Source of the DNA: Candidatus Angelobacter sp.
GTDB lineage: Bacteria > Chloroflexota > Dormibacteria > Aeolococcales > Aeolococcaceae
Assembly: GCA_035569495.1 (NCBI GenBank)
Contig: DATMMX010000047.1
Coordinates: 75,937 to 139,936, forward strand
DNA: 64,000 nucleotides
Direction of reading: 5' to 3'
The notes below the pieces were generated by a model, which was given only the letters and a program-made list of their open reading frames with translations, was not told the DNA's origin and searched no databases. This document shows, in pieces, positions 10,308-53,314 of the stretch. The translations under genes and the position numbers were made by a program. Each line of letters begins with the position of its first letter. The first letter of the stretch is position 1.

Positions 10308-10329
10308 TGTGCGAGCGGGGGTGCGCGGC

Positions 10330-21481: not shown

Positions 21482-21487
21482 GGGTGC

Positions 21488-22516: not shown

Positions 22517-22542
22517 GGGGATCTCTTTCTCCTCCAACGGAA

Positions 22543-25592
<3,050 letters not shown>

Positions 25593-25596
<4 letters not shown>

Positions 25597-27842: not shown

Positions 27843-27998
27843 TTCCCTGGCACGTGCGCTGGTCCTCCATCCGCCGCGCTTCTCTTCCCCGGCCCGCCTT
27901 CGGCCACGCTCGGCCGCGCCCCAACCACGCTATTCTCCGCGCCCGTATATGATTTCGTCAATATTACTGCCTAATTGTGCGGCGACAAGGAGACGGAC
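27843..27998. promoter_or_regulatory. Divergent intergenic control region containing conserved motif ATTGACGAAAT (minus-strand orientation) and GGAG RBS of the GH31-GH13 gene
   Basis: An AT-rich island ccgtatatGATTTCGTCAATattactgcctaattg lies in otherwise GC-rich DNA. The reverse complement ATTGACGAAATCATATAC contains a -35-like TTGACG for the minus-strand Liv/MoxR operon. The same 11-mer recurs at ~51662-51672. Confidence 0.45.
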
Positions 27999-32764: not shown

Positions 32765-33507
32765 CCGGCGTCCTCCGCGAATCCCACGGACCAGATGGCG
32801 CCGTCGCGCGCCAGGTGCGACACAGCTGCGGGAACGTCGTCCTCCAGCAATGCGGCGGACAGTCGGTCGACGTCGCAGATGAGGCCGAGGCGCACCGGGC
32901 CGAGACCAGCCTCGACCTGGCCGACCAGCGCGGCGGCGTCGCGTCGCGGCGGCCGCGTGGCGCCGTCGAGGTGGTCGAGCGAGGTGAGCAAGACGATGCG
33001 CCCGGCATCGATGCGGGCCAGCAGCGTCGCGGCGCAGTTGTCGCCGTCGTAGAGGGCGAGCAGGGCCCACGCGCCATCGGCGCGGCGCAGGATCTCGGGC
33101 AGGGCACGCCACGGATTCGCGGGCGGCGCGGGCGCGGTGGCGATGGCGGGCGACGACCAGAAGCGATCGGCGTTGTCCCAGAAGACCTCGAGCTGGGTGC
33201 GTTCGGCGAAGCGAATGCGCGCCAGCTCACCGGCCAGCTCGTCGCTGCGGGTGCGGTCGTAGAGCACCACCCGGTCGGCGCCCGTGGCGGCGAGCAATTC
33301 CGCGGCGCGCTCCCGGGCATCCTCGAACGGCTCGCGGTGCGTGGCGAGCGCCCCATCGCGCGAGCTCACCACATGGACCACGCGTCCGGCGTCGTGCAAC
33401 ACCGAGACGACCTGCGCACCGCGCCGCTGCCGCGTCTCGGCCAGCGCGCAGATCACCCCGAAGCCCACCGGCTCCAGGTCGCAGATGACGACGTCGGTGG
33501 CGATCAC
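32761..33507 (-). CDS. Hypothetical protein (248 aa), no recognised domain
   Basis: GTG start (VIATDVVICDLEPVGFGVICALAETRQ…) overlaps the TGA of the GH35 gene (GTGA). Normal amino-acid composition; only the C-terminal third of ORF 32761..34770 is believable. Confidence 0.45.
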   Translation of the reverse strand: MIATDVVICDLEPVGFGVICALAETRQRRGAQVVSVLHDAGRVVHVVSSRDGALATHREPFEDARERAAELLAATGADRVVLYDRTRSDELAGELARIRFAERTQLEVFWDNADRFWSSPAIATAPAPPANPWRALPEILRRADGAWALLALYDGDNCAATLLARIDAGRIVLLTSLDHLDGATRPPRRDAAALVGQVEAGLGPVRLGLICDVDRLSAALLEDDVPAAVSHLARDGAIWSVGFAEDAG

Positions 33508-39482: not shown

Positions 39483-40066
39483 CCTGCCCTGGCCTGTTGC
39501 TGGGCGACGTCGACGGCGAGCCGGCTGTCCTCCGGCGTCGCCGAGCAGGTGGTCACCGCGTACACCCTGGCACCCTTGGCGAACGCGACGCCGTCGCAGA
39601 ACACCTGCCGGTCGCCCCGCTGTGTCGGTCCGGTCAGCGTGAACCCGACGGAGTCCGCAACGCCCGTCGCACTGAACAGCACCACCGTGCCCGTGCTCTG
39701 CAGCGCACCGCGTTCCGACGCCAGGAAGCGTGTTGATGACTCCGCGCTCGCCATCGCGTACACGGACACCAGGACGTAGTCACCCGCCGCGGCCCCGCCG
39801 CGCAGGAAGATGCGCGAGTACCCACCGCGAAACCCTGCCGCATCCAGCGCGCTCGCCGTCTGCGCGGCCTGCGTCGGCAGCGACTGCGACGCCGTCCCGC
39901 GGTCCAGCGGGCCGCTGTCGGCCGCCGACATCGTGTACCCGGCGATGGTGGCGATCACCTGGTTGCCCAGGTCGCTGACGCTGTCGTCGCACGCCGCCAG
40001 CGGCACGCTCACCGCAACCGCGAGCAGTGCCGGTAGCCAACGGCGGGCGGGGATCGCCCGGCGCAT
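39479..40066 (-). CDS. Lipoprotein (hypothetical, ~195 aa)
   Basis: The signal/lipobox is MRRAIPARRWLPALLAVAVSVPLAACDDS. The mature region is Ala/Ser/Thr-rich with no known motif. Convergent 4-nt overlap with the GH31 stop. Confidence 0.45.
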   Translation of the reverse strand: MRRAIPARRWLPALLAVAVSVPLAACDDSVSDLGNQVIATIAGYTMSAADSGPLDRGTASQSLPTQAAQTASALDAAGFRGGYSRIFLRGGAAAGDYVLVSVYAMASAESSTRFLASERGALQSTGTVVLFSATGVADSVGFTLTGPTQRGDRQVFCDGVAFAKGARVYAVTTCSATPEDSRLAVDVAQQQARAG

Positions 40067-40155
40067 TCCATGCGTCGTCACGGCGGACGACGGTACCGCA
40101 TTGTGTCGAGGACGACCAGGGCGGCAACGTGCTGCTCATGGTCCAGAGCGCCTAG

Positions 40156-40542
40156 CTACACACGAGGCTCGAGGCCCGGTGCGCCGGTGACGGTGCGCCA
40201 GGCCTCGAAGCCGGCGAGAAACGCGACGATGCCGGCCACCGGAAGGGCGATCTCGATGGCTTCGAGCACCTCCTGCGCGGTGAGCCCAAGGTCGAGGGCC
40301 CGCTGGATGTGGCTGGTCAGGAACTCGGGCGGCGCCCGGTGCACGGTCAGCCCCATGATGATGAGGAGCTGCTTGGTCCGCATGTCGAGGGACCGCTCCG
40401 CCTCGTAGCTCTCGTGGGCCAGCGCGTTCATCGCCTGCAGCACGCCGAAGTCGTGGCGCGCCATCACCTTGTGGTACGTGGGCACGTAGCCGCGTCCGGC
40501 CGCCATGCGGTCGATGTAGGCCTGGGCCTCGCCGTCGCTCAC
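40156..40542 (-). CDS. Carboxymuconolactone decarboxylase (CMD/AhpD-like) family protein, paralog 1
   Basis: MSDGEAQAYIDRMAAGRGYVPTYHKVMARHDFGVLQAMNALAHESYEAER… is typical CMD. The ATG overlaps the PhyH3 stop (ATGA). The C-terminal 30 aa are near-identical to paralog 2 (LPVAGIVAFLAGFEAWRTVTGAPGLEP). Confidence 0.8.
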   Translation of the reverse strand: MSDGEAQAYIDRMAAGRGYVPTYHKVMARHDFGVLQAMNALAHESYEAERSLDMRTKQLLIIMGLTVHRAPPEFLTSHIQRALDLGLTAQEVLEAIEIALPVAGIVAFLAGFEAWRTVTGAPGLEPRV

Positions 40543-41372
40543 CGGGTCACCAGGCGGAACGCCGGGTGGTCGAAGGGCTCGCCGACGACCAGGCCGTAGC
40601 GGTCCGCGTCGTGGATGTGCTCGTCGCCCTGCACCAGCGCGCCGGTGAAGCGCGTGTCGGCGGGGAAGTAGTTGATGACGAACGCCCAGCGCGGCCGGCC
40701 GGTGGTGTTGGCGGGCGCGCCGTGCACCGTGCAGCCGTGGTGCACGGTGGCGTCACCGGGCCGGTAGTGGAGCTCGGCGGCCAGCGGGTACTGCTCGTTG
40801 AGACCGGGGTAGACGTCGAAGATGTCCTTGCCGTCGTCGAACCAGCGGCCCAGGTTGCCGAGCAGGTGGGAACGGCTGTGGAAGCGCAGCGCGCCCATGT
40901 CCGGCGTCACCTCGTCGAGGGCGATCCAGAAGCCGATGAAGCCGGTGCGATCCATGGCCAGGGTTGGGAAGTCCTGGTGGTAGTAGGTCTCCCCATACTC
41001 CACCGGCTCCTGCTTCTGCAGCTTGCCGAGCTTGACCGCCAGCATGTTGGCGTAGGAACGGATGCCGACCGAGCGCTCCATCAGGCGCTGCGCGTTGCGT
41101 CCGATCTGCTCGCCGTAGCCCACGGCCTCGAACAGGTCGTCCTCGTCGGCGATGTCGTGGTAGTCGTGCCAGGAGGGGTGGCCGATCAGGTCCTTGCCGG
41201 CGCGCAGCACGCTGGCGTCGCCGTCCGGGCCCATGCGCTGCTTGGCCCGCCCCAGCAGCTCCGCCGCCAGCGCCGGCGAGATGAGCTGGTCGAGCTTGGC
41301 CCAACCGTGCTCCCGGTAGTGGGCGACCTCCTGGTCGGTCACCTCGCGCATGTCAACGTGTGGCGTGTTCAT
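40539..41372 (-). CDS. Phytanoyl-CoA dioxygenase (PhyH) family oxygenase, paralog 3
   Basis: ATG (MNTPHVDMREVTDQEVAHYREHGWAKL…) with GGAGAG RBS. The HxD context is YYHQDFPTLAMDRTGF and the distal His is HHGCTVHGAP. Confidence 0.75.
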   Translation of the reverse strand: MNTPHVDMREVTDQEVAHYREHGWAKLDQLISPALAAELLGRAKQRMGPDGDASVLRAGKDLIGHPSWHDYHDIADEDDLFEAVGYGEQIGRNAQRLMERSVGIRSYANMLAVKLGKLQKQEPVEYGETYYHQDFPTLAMDRTGFIGFWIALDEVTPDMGALRFHSRSHLLGNLGRWFDDGKDIFDVYPGLNEQYPLAAELHYRPGDATVHHGCTVHGAPANTTGRPRWAFVINYFPADTRFTGALVQGDEHIHDADRYGLVVGEPFDHPAFRLVTR

Positions 41373-42243
41373 CGATGCTCTCCTGAACAACCGTTGCGGA
41401 TTCCTGGGTGGCTGCGAAGCGGTGCCGCATCTCGCCGACATGCTCGATGCGGCTGACCAGCTCGTCGCCCGCGGTGATGAACCGCTGCGGTGAACGGCGG
41501 TTGCCGACGCCCGCGGGCGTGCCCGTGAAGACCAGATCCCCTGCATACAGGGGGCAGACGGCGGAGATGTGGGCGATCAGCCGCGGCACCGAGAACACCA
41601 TCGAGGAAGTGCGGTCGTGCTGCACCTCCTCGCCGCTCAGCACGCAGCGCAGCTCCAGGTCGTCGCGATCGGGCAGCTCGTCGACGGTGACGATGGCCGG
41701 ACCGATCGGTCCGAACCCCGGGTACGACTTGCCCAGCGAGTATTGCGGTGCCGCCCCGTTGAGCTGCAGCCTGCGCTCCGAGATGTCCTGCCCGACGGTG
41801 ACGCCGGCGACCGCGTCCCACGCCGATTCCTCGGCAATGCGGTACGCATCGCGAGCGATCACCACCACCAGCTCCAGCTCCCAGTCGACGTTCCCTTGCG
41901 GGAGCGCGATGGTGCCGCCCGGACCCGCGATGCAGCCGGGAAACTTGGTGAAGATCAGCGGAACCTCGGGCACCGCGAGCTGCGCCTCGCCGGCATGTTG
42001 CGGGTAGTTGAGCGCGACGGCGAAGACCTGCCGCGGCCGCGGCACCGGCGGTCCGAGCTGCGCGGGATCGAACGGCGTGGACGGCTGCAGCGTGGTCGAT
42101 CGTGCCCACAGCACAAAGCGATCCCAGTCGCGCAGCAGTGCCCCGGGCGCCGCCGGCAGCAGGCCCGCGCTGGCCTCCGCCACGTCGAGGCACAGTGTGC
42201 CGGCGAGCAGGACCGCGCGTCCGCGCAGGTTGCCTAGCCGCAT
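41353..42243 (-). CDS. Fumarylacetoacetate hydrolase (FAH) family protein 1
   Basis: The FAH-fold C-terminal domain motifs are …NYPQHAGE…ELELVVVIARDAY…GFGPIGPAIVT…GDLVFTGTPAGVG…. Confidence 0.75.
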   Translation of the reverse strand: MRLGNLRGRAVLLAGTLCLDVAEASAGLLPAAPGALLRDWDRFVLWARSTTLQPSTPFDPAQLGPPVPRPRQVFAVALNYPQHAGEAQLAVPEVPLIFTKFPGCIAGPGGTIALPQGNVDWELELVVVIARDAYRIAEESAWDAVAGVTVGQDISERRLQLNGAAPQYSLGKSYPGFGPIGPAIVTVDELPDRDDLELRCVLSGEEVQHDRTSSMVFSVPRLIAHISAVCPLYAGDLVFTGTPAGVGNRRSPQRFITAGDELVSRIEHVGEMRHRFAATQESATVVQESIDEHATR

Positions 42244-42244
42244 C

Positions 42245-43120
42245 TCAGAGCTTCCATTGGTCCGGCGACGGTGGGGGAGTGCCGTGCCCCTCCAGCCAGG
42301 AGATGATCGGCGTGCGCAGGAGGCCGACCCTGCCGATCTCCGCCTCGACCACGTCGCCGGGCTTGAGGTAGTTGGCGAACGGGTCGTCCATGCTCGCCGC
42401 CACGCCGCCGATGGTGCCGGTGGTGAGGATGTCGCCCGCGCTGTAGCCCATCGGCGAGTGGTAGGCGACGAGCTGCGGGATGCTGACCTGCATGCGCGCG
42501 GTGTTCGACTTCTGCCGCACCGCGCCGTTGACGCGCAGCTCCATGTCGAGGTCGTGCGGATCGCCGATCTCGTCGGCGGTGACGATCCACGGACCGATGG
42601 GGCAGAAGGTGTCGATCGCCTTGCAGAAGGAGAAGACGCCCGACTCCATCTCGCGCCGCTGGATGTCGCGCGCGGTGACGTCGTTGAAGACGGTGTACCC
42701 GGCGATGTGCTCGACCGCCTGCTCGGCGGAGAAGAACTTGCCCGGCCTGCCGATGATGATGGCCAGCTCGATCTCGTAGTCGAGCTCGTTGGTCAGGTGT
42801 TCGGGGTAGATCACCGGCGCGTCGGGACCGACGATGGCGTCGACGTTCTGGAAGAACACGATGCCCTTGTTGACCGCGTGCGACCAGTTGATGCGCGCCA
42901 GGTCGTCCGCGTGCTCGCGGAAGTTGCCCGCGGTGTGGAAGAACTTCTTGGGGACGATCGGCGCGCGCAGGGCAACCTCGGCGAGGGCGAATGTCGTGCC
43001 CGTCTCGGCGACGTCACCGTCGCGCTCGAAGAACTGCCGCGTCGACGCGCAGTCCAGCTCCACGACGCGGTCCTCGACCACGCGTCCGACGCGTCCCTCG
43101 TTGAATGTCACCAGGCGCAT
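42245..43120 (-). CDS. Fumarylacetoacetate hydrolase (FAH) family protein 2
   Basis: MRLVTFNEGRVGRV…FHTAGNFREHA…YEIELAIIIGRPG…GPIGPWIVTADEI…GDILTTGTIGGV is the classic FAH-family (HpcE/ureidoglycolate-lyase-like) signature. Confidence 0.8.
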   Translation of the reverse strand: MRLVTFNEGRVGRVVEDRVVELDCASTRQFFERDGDVAETGTTFALAEVALRAPIVPKKFFHTAGNFREHADDLARINWSHAVNKGIVFFQNVDAIVGPDAPVIYPEHLTNELDYEIELAIIIGRPGKFFSAEQAVEHIAGYTVFNDVTARDIQRREMESGVFSFCKAIDTFCPIGPWIVTADEIGDPHDLDMELRVNGAVRQKSNTARMQVSIPQLVAYHSPMGYSAGDILTTGTIGGVAASMDDPFANYLKPGDVVEAEIGRVGLLRTPIISWLEGHGTPPPSPDQWKL

Positions 43121-43129
43121 GGCATCTCC

Positions 43130-45847
43130 CTAGCGTGGAACCGTGACGGCAGCGGCCTGGCTGCCCGTCTCGCTGACGTCGCCCAGGTACGCGGCGATCA
43201 CGCGCGGATCGTTGCGCACCTCGGCGGGGCGACCCTCCGCCAGCTTCTGGCCGAAGTCGAGGACGACGACGCGGTCGCAGCTGCGCATCACCAGGCTGAC
43301 GTCGTGCTCCACCAGCAGCACGCCGACGCCCCACTGGGTCGCGGCGTGGCGGATCGCGGCGACCAGCTCGTTTCGTTCGCTCCCTGACAGTCCGGCGCCG
43401 GGCTCGTCGAGCAGCAGCACCGACGCACCGGTGGCGATGGCGCGCGCCATGCCCACCAGCCGGCGCCGGCCGAAGGGCAGGTCGCGGGCGACGCGGTCGA
43501 GATCGGCGCCCAGCTCGAAGCGGTCGATCGCCGCCCACACCGCCGGCGCCAGCGTCTGGCGTCCGGGCCACAGCAGGTTGGAGAGGTACGCCGCGCGATC
43601 GCGCGAGTCCGCCGCGGCGAGCAGGTTCTCCCGCACCGTGAGGTCCTCGAACAGCTCCAGCGACTGGAAGCTGCGCGCGATGCCGCGGCGCGCCCGCCGC
43701 TCCGCCGGCCAGTGGTCGATCTGCGTGCCGTTGACCAGGACACGGCCGGAGCGCAGGGCGACGAAGCCGGTCACGGCGTCGATCAGGGTCGTCTTGCCCG
43801 CCCCGTTGGGCCCGATCAGGCCGACCACCTCGCCGGGCGCGACCTCGATGCTGACGCCGCTCAGCGCCACCACCCCGCCGAACTGAACGGTCGCATCCTG
43901 CACCTCGAGGCGCACGGGGTCGGCGGTGAAGCCCGTCGCCGCCGTCGCTGCTGACGTCTCAGCGGCGGGCGCCACGCGCGCGACGCGACCACGGCGCAGC
44001 CGCGCGATCAGGCGCTGCATCGACTTGGCGTTGCTCGACGCGATGCCGTCGGGGTCGCGCAGCAGCAGCACGATCAGGGTGACCCCACCGAACAGCGTCA
44101 GCCAGTTGCCGATGTTGGTGCCGAAGATGGCGTTGCCGATCAGGCTGCCGATCCCGCTCTGGCTCAGCGTCGCGCCGAACAGCGCGCCGGTAACGAAGCC
44201 GATGCCGCCGATGACCGCCAGCGCCGTCGCGTAGATGCTGCTGATCGGGTCGTAGTTGGAGAAGACGATGGTGTACGCGGACAGGCCGAGCAGGATGCCG
44301 CCGATCCCCGCCAGCGCGGCGGCGACGCCGAAGGCATAGAGCTTGGCGCCGACCACGCTGATGCCCAGCGACGCGGCCGCCCGCTCGTTGGAGCGCACCG
44401 CGATCATGCGCCGGCCGACGCGGCTGCGCCGGATGTTGCACACCGCCACCGAGCAGAGCAGCAGCACCAGGAACACGAACACCGTGTAGCGCTCGGGGTA
44501 TTTGATGGGGTCGAGGTCGATGCCGAAGAGGTGCAGCGGGCCGACCGTGGTGCCGGCGACGCCGCCGGTGTAGTCGGCGTTGCTGAACAGCAGGCTCTGC
44601 AGCGAGAGCCCGAGCCCGAGGGTGACCACCGCGAGGTGGACGCCGCGGGTTCGCAGCGCGGGCAGCGCGAAGAGCAGGCCGAACACCACCGAGGCGACCA
44701 CACCGAGGCAGATCGCCGCCCACATCGGCCATCCCGCGGCCACGATCATCCGCCCGGTGACGAACGCGCCCACGCCACCCAGCGCGTACTGGGCCAGTGA
44801 GACCTGGCCCGCGTAGCCGGTCAGCACCACCACCGAGAGCAGCATGATCGCCACCACCAGCGTGCTGCCCAGCGCCGTGTTCCACGTCACCGGGAACGCG
44901 AACAACACCAGCGCGACGAACAGCAACGAGAGCGGGACGAGCACACGCGGTTGCAGCACGCCGGAGCCCAGGGCGGGCAGCCGGTCCGCCGTCATGCCGC
45001 GCACCGGCAGGCGCTTGCCGCGCAGCACCAGGATGGCGACGATGACCACCAGCGGCAGCGCGTCGGAGACGCCCTGCTGGTTCCAGTACTGGCTCACCTC
45101 GCTCTGCGCGATGCCGATGGCCAGACCGCCCAGCAGGGTCAGGGGAAACGACGAGAAGCCGCCGATCAGCGCGGCCGCCAGTGCTGCGATGACGATGAGC
45201 GTCAGGTTGGTGGCCTGCAGGCCGGTGAGCGGTACCACCAGCACGCCGCTCGCCGCGGCCAGCATTCCGCCCAGCGCCCAGTTGGCCGTGGCCACGCGGT
45301 CCGGCGACCACGCCAGGCTGGCCGCCGCGCGCTGGTTCTCGGCGACCGCTCTCGACGCCAGGCCGAGCAACGTGAACCGCGAGATCGCCCACAGTGCAAC
45401 CGTCAGCACCACGGCGACGCCGAGCAGGATGAGCCGGTCCTGGCCGACGAAGATGCCGCCGATGCGGAACACCCCCTCGGGCAGCGCGGACGGCACCAGC
45501 ACCGTCGACGAACCGAAGCGCAGCAGGCCGACGGACTGCACGACGATGAGCACGCCCAGTGTGGCGATGAGACGCGAGATCGGCGAGGCGTTCTTGAGCG
45601 GGCGCATCACCAGCGGATAGGTGAGCGCGCCGATCAGCCCGGTGACGACCAGCGCCGCCGCGAAAGCGGGCAGGAATCCCCAGGCGTCGGAATGGCGCAG
45701 GTCGTAGTAGACGAACGCGCCCACCATCGCGTATGCGCCCTGAGCCAGGTTGATCACGCCGGAGCCGCGGTAGATCAGGACGATGCCCTGGCCGAGCAGC
45801 GTGTACACCGCCGCGATGCCCAGCCCGAGGATGGCAGCCTGCAGCAT
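43130..45847 (-). CDS. Triple fusion LivH-LivM-LivG: HAAT-family ABC transporter permease(s) + ATP-binding cassette (905 aa)
   Basis: The N-terminus is LivH-like (MLQAAILGLGIAAVYTLLGQGIVLIYRGSGVINLAQGAYAMVGAF). The middle is LivM-like. The C-terminus is LivG-like ATPase (GPNGAGKTTLIDAV; LPFGRRRLVGMARAIATGASVLLLDEPGAGL; LVEHDVSLV; …AAYLG). Confidence 0.8.
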   Translation of the reverse strand: MLQAAILGLGIAAVYTLLGQGIVLIYRGSGVINLAQGAYAMVGAFVYYDLRHSDAWGFLPAFAAALVVTGLIGALTYPLVMRPLKNASPISRLIATLGVLIVVQSVGLLRFGSSTVLVPSALPEGVFRIGGIFVGQDRLILLGVAVVLTVALWAISRFTLLGLASRAVAENQRAAASLAWSPDRVATANWALGGMLAAASGVLVVPLTGLQATNLTLIVIAALAAALIGGFSSFPLTLLGGLAIGIAQSEVSQYWNQQGVSDALPLVVIVAILVLRGKRLPVRGMTADRLPALGSGVLQPRVLVPLSLLFVALVLFAFPVTWNTALGSTLVVAIMLLSVVVLTGYAGQVSLAQYALGGVGAFVTGRMIVAAGWPMWAAICLGVVASVVFGLLFALPALRTRGVHLAVVTLGLGLSLQSLLFSNADYTGGVAGTTVGPLHLFGIDLDPIKYPERYTVFVFLVLLLCSVAVCNIRRSRVGRRMIAVRSNERAAASLGISVVGAKLYAFGVAAALAGIGGILLGLSAYTIVFSNYDPISSIYATALAVIGGIGFVTGALFGATLSQSGIGSLIGNAIFGTNIGNWLTLFGGVTLIVLLLRDPDGIASSNAKSMQRLIARLRRGRVARVAPAAETSAATAATGFTADPVRLEVQDATVQFGGVVALSGVSIEVAPGEVVGLIGPNGAGKTTLIDAVTGFVALRSGRVLVNGTQIDHWPAERRARRGIARSFQSLELFEDLTVRENLLAAADSRDRAAYLSNLLWPGRQTLAPAVWAAIDRFELGADLDRVARDLPFGRRRLVGMARAIATGASVLLLDEPGAGLSGSERNELVAAIRHAATQWGVGVLLVEHDVSLVMRSCDRVVVLDFGQKLAEGRPAEVRNDPRVIAAYLGDVSETGSQAAAVTVPR

Positions 45848-45848
45848 C

Positions 45849-46592
45849 TCAGTCGTGCGCCTCGACGCCGTGCGCGTCGCCGCCGGTGAGGTACGCGTCC
45901 TCGATGCCCGCGAAGGACGCGACCACCTCGGCGCTGGATCCCGACATCACGATCCGCCCGCGCTGCATCACGTAGATGCGGTCGGCGATGCGGGCGAGCT
46001 GCTGCACGTGCTGCTCGACCAGCAGCACGCCGACGCCACTGGTGTCCGCGGCCTTGCGCACCGCGTCGAGCAGCCTGCGCACCACCAGTGGTGCGAGGCC
46101 GTGCGACAGCTCATCACCGAGGAACACCCTGGGGCCGCGCCCCAAGGCGCGACCGAGTGTCAGCATCTGCTGCTCGCCACCGGAGAGCAGGCCGCCGAGA
46201 CGCCCCAGCAAAGGACGCAATTCGGGGAAGAGGTCGAGCGCCGCGGCCACGCCGGTGCGGCCGAGTCGCAGGTTCTCGTGCACGGTGAGCTGCATGAACA
46301 CCGACCGTTCCTCGGGGACGAAGGCGACCCCCGCGGCGGCGCGGGCGTACAGCGGCGCCCGCGTCGGTGACCCGTAGAGCCGCACCTCGCCGCCCATCGC
46401 GGGCAGCTCACCGGCCAGCGCGAGCAGGGTGGTCGTCTTGCCGGCACCGTTGGCGCCGAGCAGCCCGACGACCTCCCCCGGACGCACCTCGATCGCCAGG
46501 TCGCGAACGACCGCCTGATCGTGGTACCCGGCCGACAACCCCCGTGCTTCGAGCAGGGGGGTTGCCGGCATCGCTGCGCTGGCCGGTGTCAT
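45849..46592 (-). CDS. LivF-like HAAT-family ABC transporter ATP-binding protein
   Basis: GANGAGKTTTLLALAG; LSGGEQQMLTLGRAL; LLVEQHVQQ; …DAYLTG. Confidence 0.85.
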   Translation of the reverse strand: MTPASAAMPATPLLEARGLSAGYHDQAVVRDLAIEVRPGEVVGLLGANGAGKTTTLLALAGELPAMGGEVRLYGSPTRAPLYARAAAGVAFVPEERSVFMQLTVHENLRLGRTGVAAALDLFPELRPLLGRLGGLLSGGEQQMLTLGRALGRGPRVFLGDELSHGLAPLVVRRLLDAVRKAADTSGVGVLLVEQHVQQLARIADRIYVMQRGRIVMSGSSAEVVASFAGIEDAYLTGGDAHGVEAHD

Positions 46593-46598
46593 GTCAGC

Positions 46599-47828
46599 TC
46601 AGGAGGACACTTGGAAGTAGTTGACGGGTGCGTTGTTGACCAGCTGGAGCTGCCCCGACGACACCTTCTCCAGGTAGACGTTGCTGTTGGTGACGCGGGG
46701 GAAGTTGGTCGGTCCGGCGGCGTTGGGCGTCCAGTTGATCAGGCCCTCGACGTCGATGCTCTGCGCCGCCTTGAGCTCGGCGATCAGCCCGGCGCTGTCG
46801 AGCAGCCCGCTGGTGCTCTTGGCGGCGGTCGCCACCGCGTGCACGGCGAGCCAGCTGGTGACCGCCTGGGCGCTGCGGATGTCGGTGCTGGCGATGCCCG
46901 CCTTGCCGGCCGCGTCCATCTCCGCGTTGAAGTTCTTGATGCCCGGGAACTGGCCGCTCGCCGTCGCGGGCGGGAAGGAGCTGGTGATGTACATGCCGTC
47001 AGCGCTCGACCCGAAGGTGCTCAGGTTGCTCACGTCGATGTTCAGGGTCTGGTTGGCCCAGGTGGCGTTGAGGCCGATCTGCGCGCCCGCCTTCATGATC
47101 TGCGCCGAGCCGGTTGTGGACAGGATCTGCACGATCACGTCCGGGGTCAGGTCCTTCAGCGACTTGGCGTAGGGCTGGTAGTCGGTGGCGTTGAGGGGGA
47201 CGTTGACGGTTCCCGCGTAGGTCATCCCCGCCTTGGTGGTCTGCGCCTCGATCAGCTTGTCCAGCCCGGTGCCGGGGCTGGTGGCCACGGCCAGCCGCTT
47301 CAGTCCCTGGCGCGCGACCAGGTAGGGGATGGCGGGATAGGTGGTCACCGCGCCGCCCATCAGCGGCCACACGTCGGTGCTGCTCAGCTCCTGCGGCGTG
47401 TAGACGCCGAGGGGTCCGATCACCGGGATGCCGGCCTGCTGCAGCATGGGAATCGACTGCGCGCCGGTCTCGAAGAGCGAGCCGACCACGGCCACGACGT
47501 GATCCGACACCGCCTGCTGCGCGCAGGCCAGCTCCTGCGTCGGGCTGTCGTGGATGTCGCAGGTGACGATCTGCACCGGATGCGTGCCGATGCCGCCCGC
47601 GTCGCTGATCGCCTTGGCCGCCGCCTGCGCGCCGGCGCCGACCTCGGGGTGCTCGGCGATGGGATCACCGGTGAACTGGTACATCACCATCAGCTTGATG
47701 GGCGTGCCGGTGGCCGCCGCCGCGCCGCCGCCGCCGTTCCCCGTGGTGTTGTTGGAACTGCCACACGCCGCCAGCAGCAGGGTGCCCGCCAGTCCCACGG
47801 CGCTCGCCGCCGAGGCTCTCTTGATCAC
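46599..47828 (-). CDS. Liv-type (HAAT) ABC transporter substrate-binding lipoprotein
   Basis: The signal/lipobox is MIKRASAASAVGLAGTLLLAACGSS. The type-I PBP fold shows typical LivK-like segments (PIKLMVMYQFTGDPIAEHPEVGAGAQAAAKAISDAGGIG…VVAVVGS…). The ATG overlaps the CMD2 stop (ATGA). Confidence 0.8.
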   Translation of the reverse strand: MIKRASAASAVGLAGTLLLAACGSSNNTTGNGGGGAAAATGTPIKLMVMYQFTGDPIAEHPEVGAGAQAAAKAISDAGGIGTHPVQIVTCDIHDSPTQELACAQQAVSDHVVAVVGSLFETGAQSIPMLQQAGIPVIGPLGVYTPQELSSTDVWPLMGGAVTTYPAIPYLVARQGLKRLAVATSPGTGLDKLIEAQTTKAGMTYAGTVNVPLNATDYQPYAKSLKDLTPDVIVQILSTTGSAQIMKAGAQIGLNATWANQTLNIDVSNLSTFGSSADGMYITSSFPPATASGQFPGIKNFNAEMDAAGKAGIASTDIRSAQAVTSWLAVHAVATAAKSTSGLLDSAGLIAELKAAQSIDVEGLINWTPNAAGPTNFPRVTNSNVYLEKVSSGQLQLVNNAPVNYFQVSS

Positions 47829-48244
47829 GGATCTCTCCTTTCGGCCGAGGGCTCGAGGCCCGGGGCACCGGTGACTTCACGCCACGCTTCGAATCCCGCC
47901 AGGAAGGCGACGATGCCGGCCACCGGCAGCGCCATCTCCAGCGTCTCCAGGATCTGCTGGGAGCTGATCCCCAGGTCCAGCGCCATGCGCACGTGCGCGG
48001 TGAGCTGCTCGCGGTTGCTCCTCATCACGGTGAACATGGCCAGGAAGATCAGCTCCTTGGTCACCGGGTCGAGGGTTCGCTCGGCGGCGTAGGTCGCCTC
48101 GCCGAGCGCCTGCTGCGCCTTGAGCACGCGGATGTCGTGGTAGGCCATGATCTTGTGGTAGTCGGGGACGTTGCCGGGTTTCGGCCAGACCCCCGCATCG
48201 CGGGCGAACTGGTCGACGTACTCCTGGGCCTCGTTGTTGTCCAT
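47825..48244 (-). CDS. Carboxymuconolactone decarboxylase (CMD) family protein, paralog 2
   Basis: MDNNEAQEYVDQFARDAGVWPKPGNVPDYHKIMAYHDIRVLKAQQALGEATYAAERTLDPVTKELIFLAMF… is collinear with paralog 1. About 80% nucleotide identity over the 3' ~160 nt. The ORF-track N-terminal extension is garbage. Confidence 0.75.
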   Translation of the reverse strand: MDNNEAQEYVDQFARDAGVWPKPGNVPDYHKIMAYHDIRVLKAQQALGEATYAAERTLDPVTKELIFLAMFTVMRSNREQLTAHVRMALDLGISSQQILETLEMALPVAGIVAFLAGFEAWREVTGAPGLEPSAERRDP

Positions 48245-48306
48245 GTCGGCAATAACCTCGTGCTGTTCTCCAACCGGCCGCCAGCCTGGGTGTGCCCCTG
48301 GTGTGG

Positions 48307-49488
48307 TCATGCGAAGAGCTGGTCTGCGCCTCCGTGCTCGTCGAGAAGCGGCGCCGGTCCCGGCTCCGGCGGCGGTGTGCGCAGGAAGCTGATCGGCAGC
48401 CGCACGGTGCGCACCGTCCCCGCCGAGGGGTGCTGCGACTCGCGCACCAGGCCGGTGGCCAGGACGTGCGGGTCGGTGAGCAGCTCGGCCACGGTGTTGA
48501 CCCGGCTGGCGGGAATGCGCAGCGGGGGCAGCAGGCGCAGCCACTCGTCCGTCGAGCGGGTCATCAGCTCCTCTTCGAGGAACCGGTAGAGGGCGTCGAT
48601 GTTGGCGGTGCGGGCGCCGATGCTGGCGAAGCGCGGGTCGGCGACCATGTCGGGGCGCTGCACCAGCTCGAAGAACGACCGCCACTGCAGGTCCGTGTAG
48701 AGCATCACGCTGATCAGGCTGTCCGCGGTGCAGTAGGGGTGGCGATACGGCGAGTTGACGCGCGCGTAGCCCGTCGGACCCTGCGCCGGGTCGTAGACGG
48801 CGCCCCCCTGCTGTTCGAGGAACAGGAACGAGATCATCGACTCGAACATGGGCACCTCGACGGCCTGTCCCAGGCCCGAGCGCCCGCGCTCCACCAGCGC
48901 GGCGAGCACGGCGGCCAGGACGAACAGGCCGGTCGCCTTGTCGGTCATCACCGTGCGCACGTACTGCGGCGGACCGTCGTGGGTCTGCACCGCCGCGATG
49001 CCCGATGCCGCCTGGATGATGTCGTCGTAGGCGGGCAGGTCGCGGTACGGGCCGTCGCTGCCGTAGCCGGACGCGCCGCAGTGGATCATGCGCGGGTTGA
49101 GTGGCTGCAGCGACGCGTAGTCGATGCCCAGCCGCAGCGCCGCGGCGGGGGTGCGGTTGTGCACGAAGACGTCGGCCTGGCGGACCAGCTCCTCGAGGCG
49201 CCGGTGGTCGGTCTCGTCGCGAAGGTCGAGGACCACGCTCTTCTTGCCGCGGTTGGCGTTGAGGAACATCGGCCCGGCGCCGGTGCCGGTCACGTCGCCG
49301 ACCTGGCGGAGGATGTCGCCGCCCGGCTCCTCGACCTTGACCACCTCGGCGCCCATCTGGGCCATCAGCAACGTGGCGTACGGCACCATGAAGGTGTTGG
49401 AGACCTCGACGACGCGGATGCCGTGCAGCGGCGCTTGCGTCGCATTGGCGGCCTCGGCGCTCGCGCCCGTTGCGGCGGCGGCGTTCAC
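48307..49488 (-). CDS. Family III CoA-transferase (CaiB/BaiF-like)
   Basis: GTG start overlapping the ACAD stop (GTGA). …LHGIRVVEVSNTFMVPYATLLMAQMGAEVVKVEEPGGD…NRGKKSVVLDLR…VFVHNRTPAA…LNPRMIHCGASGYG… is the canonical CaiB/BaiF N-terminus. Confidence 0.8.
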   Translation of the reverse strand: MNAAAATGASAEAANATQAPLHGIRVVEVSNTFMVPYATLLMAQMGAEVVKVEEPGGDILRQVGDVTGTGAGPMFLNANRGKKSVVLDLRDETDHRRLEELVRQADVFVHNRTPAAALRLGIDYASLQPLNPRMIHCGASGYGSDGPYRDLPAYDDIIQAASGIAAVQTHDGPPQYVRTVMTDKATGLFVLAAVLAALVERGRSGLGQAVEVPMFESMISFLFLEQQGGAVYDPAQGPTGYARVNSPYRHPYCTADSLISVMLYTDLQWRSFFELVQRPDMVADPRFASIGARTANIDALYRFLEEELMTRSTDEWLRLLPPLRIPASRVNTVAELLTDPHVLATGLVRESQHPSAGTVRTVRLPISFLRTPPPEPGPAPLLDEHGGADQLFA

Positions 49489-50714
49489 GGCCGCATCCCG
49501 AACGAGCGGCCGAGCAGCTCGGAGACGATGCGGACGCGCTGGATGTTGGGCGTGCCACCGGCGATCGCCCAGCCGTGCGCGTCGCGGTGCAGCCGCGCCA
49601 TGCCGTATTCCTCGGTGTAGCCGTTGCCGCCGTGGAGCTGCATGGCGAGGTCGGAGACGCGCTTGCCCATCTCGTTGGCCACGCACTTGGCGATGGACAC
49701 CTGCAGTGCGTCGGGAATCCCCGTGCCCGCCTGGCGGGCGGCCGCGTCGATGAGCTGCCGCGCCGCCTCCACGCCCATCACCATGTCGGCGAGCTGGAGC
49801 TGCACCGCCTGGAACTCGACGATGTCGCGACCGAACTGGCGCCGCTCCTGGACGTAGCGCACCGTCTGGTCGAGCGCGGCCTGGCCGATGGCCAGGCTCA
49901 TGGTCGCGTTGCCCAGGCGCTCGATGCAGAAGGCGCCGAAGAGCTGCTTGAAGCCGCCGGGACCGACGACCAGGTTGGCGGCGGGAACGCGCGCGTTGTC
50001 GAAGTTGAGGTCGCACGACGGGATGCCGCGAAAGCCCATCAGCCGTTCCGGAGCACCGTAGGTGAGACCCAGGGTGTCGCCGTCGACGACGAGCGCGCCG
50101 ATGCCCCGTGCGCCGGGCGCGTCGCTCATGCGCGCGTAGAGCAGGTAGTGATCCGCCTCGCCGCCGTTGGAGATCCAGCGCTTGCCGCCGTTGACCACGA
50201 AGTCGTCGCCGTCGCGGCGTGCCGACGTCTTCATGTCGGTCGCGGCGGAACCGGCGTCCGGTTCGGAGATGGCGATGGCGATGGTGGCCGCGCCGCTCAC
50301 CACCGCGGGCAGCAGGCGCTGCTTGAGCTCGTCGCTGCCGAAGAGCTCGATGGCGCGCGCGGGTCCGGTGTTGGCCTCGAAGACCTGGAAGGCGGCGGGA
50401 CGGCACACCTTGGCCAGCTCCTCGATGACCACCAGCGCGTCGAGCAGCGGCGCACCCGCGCCCCCGTACTGCTCGGGCAGGGCGATGCCGAGGAATCCCA
50501 GGTCCCCGAGGCGGCGCCGCTCGCTTGCGGGGAAGGCCGCGCCGCTGCTCTCCAGCTCGGCGGCGAGCGGCGCGTAGACGTCCGCGGCGACCTGGCGCGC
50601 CAGGTTACGGATCTCGTCGCGGTGCTCGGAGGACCAGGCCTGATCGGGTGCGGACGTTGTCGAGGACACGGGAAGCCCTACGCCGACGCCGCTTCGAGCG
50701 GCTGGTCGAACCAT
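49485..50714 (-). CDS. Acyl-CoA dehydrogenase family protein
   Basis: …LGFLGIALPEQYGGAGA…AIAISEPDAGSA…WISNGG…CIERLGNA…HGGNGYTEEYGMARLHRDA…. The start is uncertain: ATG 50714 overlaps the upstream gene by 37 nt; the alternative GTG near 50669 (VSSTTSAPDQ…) lies after the upstream stop. Confidence 0.8.
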   Translation of the reverse strand: MVRPAARSGVGVGLPVSSTTSAPDQAWSSEHRDEIRNLARQVAADVYAPLAAELESSGAAFPASERRRLGDLGFLGIALPEQYGGAGAPLLDALVVIEELAKVCRPAAFQVFEANTGPARAIELFGSDELKQRLLPAVVSGAATIAIAISEPDAGSAATDMKTSARRDGDDFVVNGGKRWISNGGEADHYLLYARMSDAPGARGIGALVVDGDTLGLTYGAPERLMGFRGIPSCDLNFDNARVPAANLVVGPGGFKQLFGAFCIERLGNATMSLAIGQAALDQTVRYVQERRQFGRDIVEFQAVQLQLADMVMGVEAARQLIDAAARQAGTGIPDALQVSIAKCVANEMGKRVSDLAMQLHGGNGYTEEYGMARLHRDAHGWAIAGGTPNIQRVRIVSELLGRSFGMRP

Positions 50715-51631
50715 TGCTCGGCGCCCGCGGTCTGCATGCGCTGCCAGGCGGCGGCGATGGTGCGCAGCCGCGCCACCGCGTCGTGCAGGCCGGCGAGCAC
50801 GCCGGCGTCCTGCGCGGTGAGGTCGGCGAAGAGGTCATCGACGTCGGGAAGGCCCTTGATCGAGTCGATGACGCCGCCGAGCTGTCTGGCGGCGGTGCGC
50901 GACCGGTTGCTCGACTCGCCGCGCGCTGTGCCCGTGCGCGCGCGCGTTTCCGCAATGACCTCGCGCACCACGGCGCGGATGCTCGCGCCGTCCATGTCCG
51001 CGCTGGTGCGGCGGCGAATCTCCGCGATGACCTCGTCCAGCCGCTGCTCGATCTGGCCCGCGGTGTAGGGATGGATGTCGCGCACGCCCGCGCTGATGCC
51101 CGCGGCGAGCAGGGTGCGGATCACCCGCCCGTGCTGGAGCAGCTCGTAGCTGCGGCTGCGGCTGAGGCCGAACTCGGCGCGCACGTAGGCGGACCAGCTG
51201 CGGTGGCCGAGGGCGTGCCAGGCGCGGCGCTGGTGCGCCTCGAGCAGCAGCATCGAGGTGTCGCCGAGCGCGGTCTTGATGCGGTGGGTGAGCAGTCGCG
51301 CCTCGATCCGGTCCAGCGGCGCGGCCGGTGCGGGCTGATCGCCGTCGCCGGTCGTGCGGGGCACGACGCTGATCGGGCGCGGCGCCGCTGGACGGAGGCG
51401 CGCGGCCTGTTCTCTGAAGACAAGGCCGATGGCGTCGCGGATGGGCATGCCCGGGGCGAGCCCGGTGACGAGGCTCTGGGTCCGTGCGGCGAGCGCCTTC
51501 GAGACGGTCGCCGCCCCGCTCTCGGAGGCGGATTCGAGCTCGTTGAGGACGCGGTCGAGCACCCGTCTGCGCAGGCGCGGATCGGCGGCCGGCGCGGCGC
51601 AGGTGGATATCTCGATGGCTCCAACACCCAT
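50678..51631 (-). CDS. Hypothetical protein with putative HTH / ParB-KorB-like DNA-binding segment
   Basis: Reasonable composition. The segment …RRAWHALGHRSWSAYVRAEFGLSRSRSYELLQHGRVIRTLL… resembles GxSRSxVxxLLRL-type HTH. It is the first gene downstream of the TTGACG-N17-TAGCTT promoter. Function unknown. Confidence 0.4.
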   Translation of the reverse strand: MGVGAIEISTCAAPAADPRLRRRVLDRVLNELESASESGAATVSKALAARTQSLVTGLAPGMPIRDAIGLVFREQAARLRPAAPRPISVVPRTTGDGDQPAPAAPLDRIEARLLTHRIKTALGDTSMLLLEAHQRRAWHALGHRSWSAYVRAEFGLSRSRSYELLQHGRVIRTLLAAGISAGVRDIHPYTAGQIEQRLDEVIAEIRRRTSADMDGASIRAVVREVIAETRARTGTARGESSNRSRTAARQLGGVIDSIKGLPDVDDLFADLTAQDAGVLAGLHDAVARLRTIAAAWQRMQTAGAEQWFDQPLEAASA

Positions 51632-51736
51632 GACGGGTGAGAAAGCTAAATCAGTTAGATAATTTCGTCAATGGGGTGCGCGGGCGGTCCGTCCGGAATT
51701 GCGGACGCCCGCTGCCGGGGGCGGCTGAGGCCGCCT
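51632..51736 (-). promoter_or_regulatory. Predicted sigma-70-type promoter TTGACG-N17-TAGCTT on the minus strand with short (~4-11 nt) leader, sharing the motif ATTGACGAAAT with region 27952-27962
   Basis: The minus-strand reading is caccccATTGACGAAATtatctaactgattTAGCTTtctcacccgtcATG. It is AT-rich in a GC-rich genome and lies between the GntR gene stop and the HTH gene start. Confidence 0.5.
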
Positions 51737-52474
51737 TCAGAAGTACTCGCGAGGCGAGGCGGCCATGCGCATGAGCAGGCGGATCTTGGCGTCGAGGTGG
51801 CGCCGCCACAGCTTCTCGGCCTCGACGGCGTCGCGGCTGCGGATCAGCTCGACGATCTCCTCGTGCACACGGTGGAAGCGATGCGCCTCCTCGACGAACT
51901 GGCCCTGCATGGTGCTGGCGATGGCCCGGCCGGCGGTGATGATCACCTCCTCCATCATGCCGTGCATGATCGCCAGGGTCCGGTTGCCGGACAGGTCGAC
52001 GATGGTGCGGTGGAAGGCGTTGCCGGCGAGCACCGCCTCGCTGCCGTCGTTGCCGTACTGGCGCCGCTCCTCGTCGAGCAGGGTGGCCAGCGTCTCCAGG
52101 TCGGCGGCGCTGCGGTTGCGGGCCAGCCTGGCCAGTGCGGGCAGCTCGATCGCCATGGTCGCCTCGTGGACGTCGACCATGGGCACCCCCGCGTACTGCA
52201 GGTAGCGGCCGAAGTACCGCGCCGCCGCGCCCTCGGTGGGGGCGACGATCCGCGCCCCACCGCGCACGCCGCGAAGGATCTCGACCAGCGACTCCGACTC
52301 GAGGATGCGGATGGCCTCGCGCAGTGTCGGCCGGGAGACCCCGAAGGTCTCGCACAGCTCCGCCTCGTTGGGCAGCATCTCGCCGGCCTTGAGCTCACCG
52401 CGAAGCACCTGGGCTCGCAGCTTCTCCACGATCAGCTCCGCGGTCTTGGGGACGCGCAAGGGGACGTCGTTCAT
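51737..52474 (-). CDS. GntR-family transcriptional regulator (FadR/FCD subfamily)
   Basis: The N-terminal wHTH is …GELKAGEMLPNEAELCETFGVSRPTLREAIRILESESLVEI…. The C-terminal FCD helical domain has a His-rich ligand site (…AFHRTIVDLSGN…HRFHRVHEEIVELI…). Confidence 0.85.
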   Translation of the reverse strand: MNDVPLRVPKTAELIVEKLRAQVLRGELKAGEMLPNEAELCETFGVSRPTLREAIRILESESLVEILRGVRGGARIVAPTEGAAARYFGRYLQYAGVPMVDVHEATMAIELPALARLARNRSAADLETLATLLDEERRQYGNDGSEAVLAGNAFHRTIVDLSGNRTLAIMHGMMEEVIITAGRAIASTMQGQFVEEAHRFHRVHEEIVELIRSRDAVEAEKLWRRHLDAKIRLLMRMAASPREYF

Positions 52475-52675
52475 CTCACCTTTCGGACAACGCGGGCATC
52501 ATCGATAACGGTGGCCACGTTCGATCCCGCAGTCTACCCCGCGGCGATGCAGCCGCCATACGTCCCCAATGCTGTTCCCGACGCTTTGGATGCTGGGGGC
52601 CCGGGATGCTGACCGGTCCGTCACGGTCCGGATGACGTACGCTCGGCGTCTGGCCGGGCCACGCAACGCACCCCC

Positions 52676-53314
52676 ATGAGTGAGCAGTACCAACCGCACC
52701 CCGTCCGCGGCCGGCTCAACGCGGCCTGCTTCGCCGCCTTCGACGGCGTCATCAACCGTGCCATGCGCCGTCCCAAGGAGCAGGCCTTCGCCGACCTACC
52801 TGACGAGGTGGTCGAGATCGGCCCTGGCGTCGGCGCCAACTTCCGGTTCCTGCGCCCTGGCACGCGGCTGATCGCCATCGAGCCCAACCCGCACATGCAT
52901 GCTCGCCTGATCGCGCGCGCCGCGGTGCACAGGATTCACATCGAGCTGCGCAGCGTCAAAGGCGAGCGTGTGGATCTTCCCGACGCATCGGCGGTGGCCG
53001 TGATCTCCAGCCTCGTCCTCTGCACCGTGGAGCGACCGGCCGCCGTTGTGGCCGAAGTGCGCCGCATCCTCGAGCCCGGCGGCCGCTACTCGTTCGTCGA
53101 GCACGTCGCGGCGCCCGAGGGCACGGCGCTGCGACGCATCCAGCACGGCATCCGCCGCCCCTGGGCCTGGGCGTTCGAAGGCTGCTCCTGCGAGCGCGAC
53201 ACGGCGGGCACCATCCGCGCCGCGGGTTTCCGTGCCGTGGACGTCACCGACTACTGCCTGCGCTCGGTGATCGTCCCGGTCAACACGCAGATCGCCGGCA
53301 CCGCCATCGCGTGA
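52676..53314 (+). CDS. Class I SAM-dependent methyltransferase (Methyltransf_11-like)
   Basis: Motif I is VVEIGPGVGANFRF. Post-I acidic is LIAIEPNP. Motif II/III is …VISSLVLCTV…ILEPGGRYSFVEH. Confidence 0.7.
   Translation: MSEQYQPHPVRGRLNAACFAAFDGVINRAMRRPKEQAFADLPDEVVEIGPGVGANFRFLRPGTRLIAIEPNPHMHARLIARAAVHRIHIELRSVKGERVDLPDASAVAVISSLVLCTVERPAAVVAEVRRILEPGGRYSFVEHVAAPEGTALRRIQHGIRRPWAWAFEGCSCERDTAGTIRAAGFRAVDVTDYCLRSVIVPVNTQIAGTAIA

Follow-up and report, generated by a model that had tools for sequence, protein, structure and literature searches.

A rare, tightly packed 11-gene operon that joins a Liv-type importer to PhyH, CMD and FAH family proteins and matches no described pathway

A 64-kb stretch of DNA labelled Candidatus Angelobacter sp. 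(contig DATMMX010000047.1, positions 75,937 to 139,936; hereafter the window) carries on its minus strand, at 40156-51631, a single tightly packed operon of 11 genes which is rare and matches no described pathway. The operon encodes a Liv-type importer with its lipoprotein substrate-binding protein (SBP), a family III CoA-transferase, an acyl-CoA dehydrogenase (ACAD), a PhyH-family dioxygenase, two CMD-family proteins (CMD1 and CMD2), two fumarylacetoacetate-hydrolase (FAH) family enzymes (FAH1 and FAH2) and a first gene without a curated family, and it lies behind a gene for a GntR regulator. We read it as a single catabolic operon, controlled by the GntR protein, for an organic acid that is imported and would be handled as its CoA ester, and give this reading a probability of roughly 0.7. 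The class of substrate is a tentative suggestion, and could be a branched or dicarboxylic acid of the aliphatic or alicyclic kind.

Operon anatomy and conserved synteny

All 11 open reading frames (ORFs) are supported as coding by a GC content at third codon positions (GC3) of 0.86-0.95, in a window of about 72% GC (Table 1). An earlier note on this DNA had described a twelve-gene minus-strand operon. The tight clustering, the gene order and the strand are as it gave them, and its family calls for the enzymes and the transporter were all matched by Pfam, but the operon has 11 ORFs and the count reaches 12 only if the GntR gene is included. That gene, which the note had also placed ahead of the operon, lies 105 nt upstream of the first operon gene on the same strand, and both its GntR and its FCD domain were found by Pfam. 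Nine of the ten junctions within the operon are overlaps or gaps of 9 nt or less, much as the note had said (nearly every junction overlapping or within 10 nt); the exception is the 62 nt between the CoA-transferase and CMD2, a gap that is also present in the relative L137. This anatomy supports the predicted unit, co-transcribed and catabolic-looking, that lies behind a promoter-like site and a GntR gene.

Table 1. Features of the operon and its immediate flanks, listed in the direction of transcription; junctions are with the next operon gene downstream.
Feature	Coordinates	Strand	Evidence	Junction
GntR regulator with FCD effector domain, 245 aa	51737-52474	minus	PF00392 68 bits, PF07729 63.6 bits	
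Two GC-rich hairpins, CGTCCGCAA/TTCCGGACG	51678-51735	minus	between gntR stop codon and -35 hexamer	
Promoter-like site TTGACG (51671-51666)-N17-TAGCTT (51648-51643)	51643-51671	minus	sequence	
First gene (Hyp), 317 aa	50678-51631	minus	all-helical, family without curated model	37-nt overlap; 8-nt gap with alternative ACAD start
Acyl-CoA dehydrogenase (ACAD); start may be GTG 50669	49485-50714	minus	three ACAD domains	GTGA stop/start overlap
Family III CoA-transferase, 393 aa	48307-49488	minus	PF02515 351.7 bits, positions 1-365 of 366	62 nt; ATGA overlap only with upstream ATG as CMD2 start
CMD2, CMD-family protein, 139 aa; alternative start 48310	47825-48244	minus	PF02627 47.5 bits	GTGA stop/start overlap
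Liv/HAAT-type lipoprotein SBP, 409 aa	46599-47828	minus	Peripla_BP_6, PF13458 133.6 bits	6 nt
LivF-type ABC ATPase, 247 aa	45849-46592	minus	PF00005 75.3 bits	1 nt
LivH-LivM-LivG (LivHMG) fusion, 905 aa	43130-45847	minus	2 x BPD_transp_2 + ABC_tran + BCA_ABC_TP_C	9 nt
FAH2, FAH-family enzyme, 291 aa	42245-43120	minus	PF01557 219 bits	1 nt
FAH1, FAH-family enzyme, 296 aa	41353-42243	minus	PF01557 206.8 bits	20-nt overlap
PhyH-family Fe(II)/2-oxoglutarate dioxygenase, 277 aa	40539-41372	minus	PF05721 62.6 bits	GTGA stop/start overlap; CMD1 translationally coupled to PhyH
CMD1, CMD-family protein, 128 aa	40156-40542	minus	PF02627 41.6 bits	
Small lipoprotein ORF, 195 aa, begins MRRAIPARRWLPALLAVAVSVPLAAC	39479-40066	minus	signal peptide with lipobox	

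A scan of one genome per species (185,579 species) returned 53 PhyH-related loci, one of which has the same gene set. This locus (L004; recovered loci are numbered L001, L004, L137 and so on) belongs to an Acidimicrobiales metagenome-assembled genome, has a PhyH that is 65% identical, and runs in the order PhyH-CMD1-CoA-transferase-CMD2-SBP-LivF-LivHMG-FAH2. Four more clusters, all on metagenome contigs, were reached via the closest proteins. L001 encodes a GntR regulator, an ADP-forming CoA ligase, SBP, LivF, LivHMG, PhyH, a CMD protein, FAH2, two ACAD subunits and an enoyl-CoA hydratase; L137 encodes GntR, a homologue of the first gene, a hydratase, PhyH, CMD1, two ACAD subunits, the CoA-transferase, CMD2 and SBP, and its contig ends inside LivF. 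The cluster on L138/L139 comprises several ACADs and hydratases, a short-chain dehydrogenase/reductase (SDR), CMD, PhyH, SBP, LivF, LivHMG, an isopropylmalate-synthase-like gene and FAH2, and L140 contributes FAH2, PhyH and CMD1. The core proteins, taking the best-matching orthologue of each, are 48-80% identical to those of the window. The conserved core consists of PhyH followed by CMD, the Liv-type importer with its LivHMG fusion, FAH2, a CoA-activating enzyme, one or more ACADs and GntR, and because these genes occur together in shuffled order across L001, L004, L137, L138/L139 and L140, their linkage is more probably functional than accidental. The check for synteny in relatives that the earlier note had proposed is thus positive for PhyH, CMD, SBP, LivF, LivHMG, FAH2, the CoA-activating enzyme and GntR, and negative for the ACAD and FAH1 of the window.

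Beyond these clusters the arrangement is scarce. Homologues of PhyH are mostly metagenomic, with none close in cultured genera. A metagenome scan with the single PhyH protein returned nothing, and an alignment-based metagenome scan returned 80 loci, none above 54% identity and none with the cluster. Homologues at or below 50% identity, in Spirochaetaceae, in Actinomadura and, by tblastn on loci of the genome scan, in Actinomadura, Spirillospora and Solirubrobacterales, sit in unrelated contexts and are uninformative about the operon. L142 departs from this in part: there a PhyH of 49% identity has as its neighbours an ACAD, an AMP-binding ligase, a GntR/FCD gene and a member of the first-gene family.

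The encoded proteins and a possible route

The CoA-transferase matches CoA_transf_3 over its full length, and its AYD motif (with the catalytic Asp) aligns with GYD of formyl-CoA transferase and AYD of YfdE. NCBIfam models for the named specificities (succinate-glutarate, oxalate, formyl-CoA, mesaconate and carnitine) do not assign it, all of them scoring below cut-off (best 197.9 bits vs 750); the succinate-glutarate, oxalate and formyl-CoA transferases are on top. L001 has an ADP-forming CoA ligase in its stead, and L004 has an AMP-forming ligase in addition to it, so the role of the transferase is taken to be activation of the acid. An alpha-methylacyl-CoA racemase is an unlikely alternative for this protein, given the substituting ligases and best matches that are true transferases.

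The ACAD carries 'IAGGT' where medium-chain acyl-CoA dehydrogenase (MCAD) type enzymes have 'IYEGT' and so lacks the usual catalytic Glu; the same change is seen in the desulfinase 5af7. Its Glu265 lies 119 residues before Ile384, which equals the E286-to-I405 spacing of human isovaleryl-CoA dehydrogenase (IVD), and the motif I384-A-G-G-T aligns with I405-G-A-G-T of that enzyme. In human IVD the small residues G406/A407 make room for the branched chain (PMC12369846). The window protein therefore has the IVD-type layout, with a Glu on helix G and small residues replacing the Tyr-Glu of MCAD, and with Glu265 kept at an identical spacing it is most likely a true dehydrogenase of this layout. Its score against the sole NCBIfam model named 'isovaleryl-CoA dehydrogenase' (NF008594) is 35.6 bits vs a cut-off of 545. 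The best matches overall are generic short/medium-chain ACADs and the model for 3-sulfinopropionyl-CoA desulfinase (NF042439), which ranks first in NCBIfam with 329.8 bits vs a cut-off of 600; all are below cut-off.

The desulfinase was considered as a candidate and rejected. The Advenella 3-sulfinopropionate route (Act + Acd) likewise combines a family III CoA-transferase with an ACAD-fold protein, and 'IAGGT' is found in both, but the window ACAD keeps Glu265 where 5af7 has Gln and has Phe in place of Arg84. Instead of a window-type ACAD the related clusters encode two-subunit, PimC/D-like ACADs together with enoyl-CoA hydratases. The ACAD pairs of L001 and L137 score best against PimC/PimD, at far below the cut-offs; pimeloyl-CoA dehydrogenase PimC/D acts on dicarboxylyl-CoA.

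In PhyH the iron triad and the 2-oxoglutarate Arg (His133, Asp135, His218 and Arg229) are invariant in 35 homologues. Its AlphaFold2 model (pLDDT 91.4) superposes on solved PhyH-type Fe/2-oxoglutarate dioxygenases with TM-scores of 0.64-0.75, the nearest folds at 15-23% identity being SnoK, SnoN, MysH, GriE and proline hydroxylases, with EctD among the neighbours. Genes for CoA-activating enzymes or ACADs are found with this clade of PhyH in the window and in L001, L002, L004, L137, L138 and L142, and it is from this association of genes that PhyH may be proposed to act on an acyl-CoA. The window has two further PhyH-family genes on the minus strand, at 31922-33226 and at 10330-11739. The latter adjoins an SDR (9543-10472) and an esterase (8735-9997), and it alone gave a tblastn match to the operon PhyH (32% over the C-terminal half).

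A CMD gene follows PhyH in the window, L001, L004, L137 and L140. CMD1 and CMD2 are 58% identical, and each has kept its place in the window, L004 and L137: the gene after PhyH is of the CMD1 type, and the one after the CoA-transferase is of the CMD2 type, with its short WP(K/R)P insertion. The pair of paralogs that the earlier note had thought unusual is therefore a real and conserved feature. Neither protein contains a cysteine, nor do eight of nine orthologues, and without the CxxC motif of AhpD they are not AhpD-type peroxidases. Against the PcaC model TIGR02425, CMD2 scores 24.1 bits vs a cut-off of 155.7 and CMD1 has no match.

FAH1 and FAH2 are 30% identical to each other. The equivalog models tested for them (TIGR02303, TIGR02305, TIGR01266 and NF053535) all stay below cut-off: the HpaG/HpcE models give 127-139 bits vs 276 (HpaG C-terminal domain) and 81-88 vs 229, the fumarylacetoacetase model 52 vs 375, and the model for LRA6 L-2,4-diketo-3-deoxyrhamnonate hydrolase (NF053535), although the best for both proteins, 166.8 and 158.3 vs 500. 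FAH2 is 75-82% identical to proteins of the cultured genera Amycolatopsis, Streptomyces and Lentzea, and its nearest solved structures are YisK (an oxaloacetate decarboxylase), OPET decarboxylase and diketo-deoxyrhamnonate hydrolase. In L139 (7271-9421) an orthologue of FAH2 is fused to an isopropylmalate/citramalate-synthase-like (HMGL-like) domain; on the near-identical contig L138 (15604-17821) the HMGL-like domain and FAH2 are called as separate overlapping genes. From this fusion and the nearest solved relatives, the substrate of FAH2 is probably a 2-oxo or 2,4-dioxo acid in free form.

The importer set is complete, with two BPD_transp_2 domains, LivG-type and LivF-type ATPases and a Peripla_BP_6 protein, and the LivG portion of the fusion carries the LivG-specific BCA_ABC_TP_C tail. 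LivHMG fusions of 897-911 aa also occur in L001 (7236-9971) and L138/L139 (L138:12886-15579), and the LivF orthologues of L001, L004, L137 and L138 are 64-75% identical. The translated SBP contains the lipobox LLAAC. It is not of the LivJ/LivK type (NF011933, 26.8 bits vs a cut-off of 477), and its best solved relatives, 4evs, 4f06 and 4ey3, which we take to be aromatic-acid binders of R. palustris, rank above the Leu/Ile/Val-binding proteins LivJ and LivK. A second Liv system in the window (22546-27929) has a LivH-LivM fusion with separate ATPases.

From these families and their synteny a route can be proposed, the chemistry that the earlier note had ascribed to each enzyme being a generalisation from its family. 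A GntR/FCD repressor would control a nearly leaderless 11-gene transcript. The lipoprotein SBP, with LivHMG and LivF, would import a carboxylate other than a standard Leu/Ile/Val ligand (step 1) and the CoA-transferase would convert it to the CoA thioester (step 2). The IVD-layout ACAD would then desaturate a probably beta-substituted acyl-CoA (step 3), PhyH would hydroxylate an intermediate whose product one or both CMD proteins would decarboxylate or isomerise (step 4), and central metabolites would arise as FAH2 and FAH1 cleave or decarboxylate a 2-oxo or 2,4-dioxo acid in its free form (step 5). The order of the enzymatic steps 3-5 is a guess.

Promoter, regulator and surroundings

The promoter-like site TTGACG-N17-TAGCTT claimed for the operon by the earlier note is present, and is the sole match to TTGACR-N17-TANNNT in the 64 kb, against 0.02 expected from shuffles. 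It lies within an AT-rich island of 37-45% GC, compared with about 72% overall. The end of the -10 hexamer is 11 nt from the first ATG, ahead of which there is no Shine-Dalgarno sequence, so that the mRNA would be nearly leaderless. A scan of 39000-53000 for E. coli-type promoters and intrinsic terminators called nothing. The site fails such a scan because its -10 hexamer matches at only three of six positions, and it passes only in the actinobacterial TANNNT form of that hexamer. Similar TTGAC-N17-(T/C)AnnnT sites are found ahead of the related clusters L004 and L001.

In the stretch from the gntR stop codon to the -35 hexamer, two GC-rich hairpins fold with -35.3 kcal/mol over 69 nt (z = -2.3 vs shuffles), and a 9-nt inverted repeat at 51690-51707 lies 19 nt upstream of the -35 hexamer. 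The hairpins have no T-tail, which is why the terminator scan did not call them; they are possibly the terminator of gntR or an operator palindrome. The regulator itself has both the N-terminal GntR winged helix and the C-terminal FCD domain, and orthologues with 52-62% identity adjoin related clusters in L137 and L144. In L001 (3020-3070) the palindromes TTGGAATCCAA and ATTGGATCCAAT, of the TTGGA(N)TCCAA type, occur in and just upstream of the promoter-like site and are likely GntR operators; they have no counterpart in the window promoter.

The first gene encodes a protein without a family in Pfam, NCBIfam or PHROG. A profile search nevertheless assembled a family of 4369 cluster representatives (513 with E<=1e-30); none of ten sampled representatives has a Pfam match, and every homologue that was traced to its source name is an environmental 'hypothetical' protein. 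Members adjoin a GntR/FCD gene in four independent loci (the window, L137:1028-2047, L144:10001-10966 and L142:9599-10525), which suggests a regulator-partner pair, and a regulatory role is plausible. The AlphaFold2 model is all-helical (pLDDT 83) and had no significant structural match in a fold search. With no family and no fold match, the helix-turn-helix label that the earlier note had attached to this protein is unproven.

At the other end of the operon, the small lipoprotein ORF begins 89 nt downstream of CMD1 and overlaps by 4 nt the 3' end of a convergent gene for a GH31 family glycoside hydrolase. It has no family match in Pfam or PHROG, the related loci contain no homologue of it, and whether the operon includes it is uncertain. 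Between CMD1 and this ORF there is no hairpin better than shuffles, and with no terminator-like structure behind CMD1 the operon lacks a defined 3' end.

The rest of the window encodes mainly glycoside hydrolases, along with the second Liv system and the two other PhyH genes. Two long plus-strand ORFs, at 1840-5997 (1385 codons, GC3 0.90) and 4089-7439 (1116 codons, GC3 0.70 overall and 0.91 in the last 100 codons), have no Pfam match at 1e-5. A row of genes on the minus strand at 17943-25513, in the usual MoxR-DUF58-transglutaminase arrangement, encodes a MoxR-type AAA ATPase, then a DUF58 protein and then a TgpA/transglutaminase protein. The first-gene protein is 100% identical to a hypothetical protein from a metagenome-assembled genome that carries the NCBI label Candidatus Angelobacter sp. 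(Acidobacteriota). The 72% GC, the SBP lipobox, the promoter of leaderless type and the closest homologues, which are from Acidimicrobiales, Amycolatopsis and Streptomyces, look actinobacterial instead, and the label may be wrong.

Competing readings and known pathways

Several results weigh against the operon being a CoA-ester catabolic unit for an imported acid. No operon protein reaches any NCBIfam equivalog cut-off, which leaves the pathway without a name, as the earlier note had already conceded. The window has no enoyl-CoA hydratase, thiolase or dehydrogenase that would complete a round of beta-oxidation or make a 2-oxo acid, leaving gaps in the proposed route. Its ACAD lies outside the conserved core, with at most 27% identity to the ACADs of the related clusters, and FAH1 is absent from the related PhyH clusters and so from that core. 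The proteins closest to PhyH in structure have free small molecules or amino acids as substrates and not CoA esters. Finally, no GntR operator was recognised at the window promoter, where the spacer holds only weak palindromes.

Literature searches on these enzyme combinations or on the FAH family turned up no account of such a cluster, and each known system that resembles the operon does so in part. The pim cluster of Rhodopseudomonas palustris, pimFABCDE with Liv-type ABC transporters next to it, serves the beta-oxidation of dicarboxylic and fatty acids. It shares with the operon a Liv/HAAT importer, CoA activation and one or more ACADs; the window differs in its single IVD-type ACAD and in having no hydratase, dehydrogenase or thiolase. 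PhyH, CMD and FAH genes are not known from the pim cluster. The leucine/isovalerate route resembles the operon through IVD and its Glu on helix G, 119 residues before I-x-x-G-T, and is set apart by its methylcrotonyl-CoA carboxylase, methylglutaconyl-CoA hydratase and HMG-CoA lyase, which are absent here.

Eukaryotic peroxisomal alpha-oxidation, by phytanoyl-CoA 2-hydroxylase and a thiamine diphosphate (ThDP) dependent 2-hydroxyacyl-CoA lyase, is matched in so far as a PhyH-family dioxygenase stands beside enzymes that form and oxidise acyl-CoAs, and PhyH and IVD-type ACADs are both known for 3-methyl-branched acyl-CoAs. The likeness does not extend to the protein itself: the window PhyH is about 15-17% identical to human PHYHD1, and phytanoyl-CoA hydroxylase falls outside its top 50 fold matches. 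A ThDP-dependent lyase (TPP_enzyme domain) is found neither in the operon nor in the window and is present only in the more distant L002. It is doubtful that the operon encodes an undescribed bypass resembling alpha-oxidation, in which PhyH, the cysteine-free CMD proteins and the FAH pair would carry an acyl-CoA past a beta-branch or a second carboxyl group. A CMD decarboxylase and C-C cleavage by FAH would then replace the ThDP lyase, with expression governed by the GntR/FCD regulator and its partner of undescribed family.

A different account makes the operon a mosaic of blocks (transporter/CoA-transferase/CMD2, PhyH-CMD1, and FAH2-FAH1 from another actinobacterial pathway) that serve different substrates and form no single pathway. 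The FAH pair does lead a life of its own. Orthologues of the tandem (78% and 58% identical) are adjacent and in the same order in Streptomyces avermitilis (L145:9001-10698) and Amycolatopsis mongoliensis (L147:8423-10730), beside a CMD-family gene, two divergent SDRs, an alpha/beta hydrolase and a GntR/FCD gene. These loci share with the window the FAH orthologues and nearby CMD-family and GntR/FCD genes, but have two SDRs and hydrolases and lack PhyH, the Liv transporter, the CoA-transferase and the ACAD; their CMD protein has no detectable similarity to CMD1 or CMD2. The FAH-FAH tandem is widespread in cultured actinomycetes and apparently uncharacterised. A mosaic would also agree with the closeness of FAH2 to proteins of cultured genera in which PhyH has no close homologue, and with the rearrangement of blocks between loci. 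We nonetheless consider it unlikely: FAH2 travels with PhyH or the transporter in five of six related loci (L001, L004, L138, L139 and L140), the sixth, L137, breaks off before the position where FAH2 would be expected, and the window genes are translationally coupled across the block borders.

The operon could alternatively be the lower part of an aromatic-acid pathway, the SBP importing an aromatic carboxylate and the CMD and FAH proteins processing ring-fission products of the beta-ketoadipate, homoprotocatechuate or gentisate type. CMD and FAH are signature families of such routes, their folds recurring in PcaC and HpaG/HpcE, and the nearest solved SBPs are taken to be aromatic-acid binders. 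However, the PcaC, HpaG and fumarylacetoacetase scores are far below cut-off, and the partner enzymes of all three routes are missing from the operon and the 64-kb window, which has no ring-cleaving dioxygenase, cycloisomerase, enol-lactonase, family I CoA-transferase or pcaB/D/HG/IJ gene. Moreover, what the related clusters add are enzymes of beta-oxidation, not of ring cleavage. On balance this origin for the substrate is decidedly unlikely.

A further reading has the HAAT system import an amino acid, and PhyH hydroxylate it in free form as GriE and the proline hydroxylases do. It would explain why the transporter belongs to the branched-chain amino-acid family and why GriE, EctD and proline hydroxylases are structurally close to PhyH. 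It is very unlikely in view of the low LivJ/K score of the SBP, the lack of any aminotransferase, deaminase or amino-acid dehydrogenase in the operon (Pfam), and the CoA-activating enzymes and ACADs that occur with the PhyH clade in seven loci. A biosynthetic tailoring cassette for a secondary metabolite, as might be imagined from the biosynthetic roles of SnoK, SnoN and MysH, the closest solved relatives of PhyH, is extremely improbable for a locus with an importer and its lipoprotein SBP, a GntR/FCD regulator, no core biosynthetic enzymes and flanks that encode glycoside hydrolases.

The GntR-controlled catabolic operon that we favour would join the many orphan catabolic operons whose enzymes come from familiar families, with no surprising mechanism in view and no long-standing question touched. 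Were its substrate identified, a further catabolic pathway, probably one for a branched or dicarboxylic acid, would be on record for uncultured soil bacteria of high GC content. The result would also provide the first functions for this PhyH clade, for the cysteine-free CMD clade and for the widespread actinobacterial FAH2-FAH1 tandem, and a first functional context for an uncurated family that occurs with GntR/FCD regulators and numbers at least 4,000 sequence clusters.

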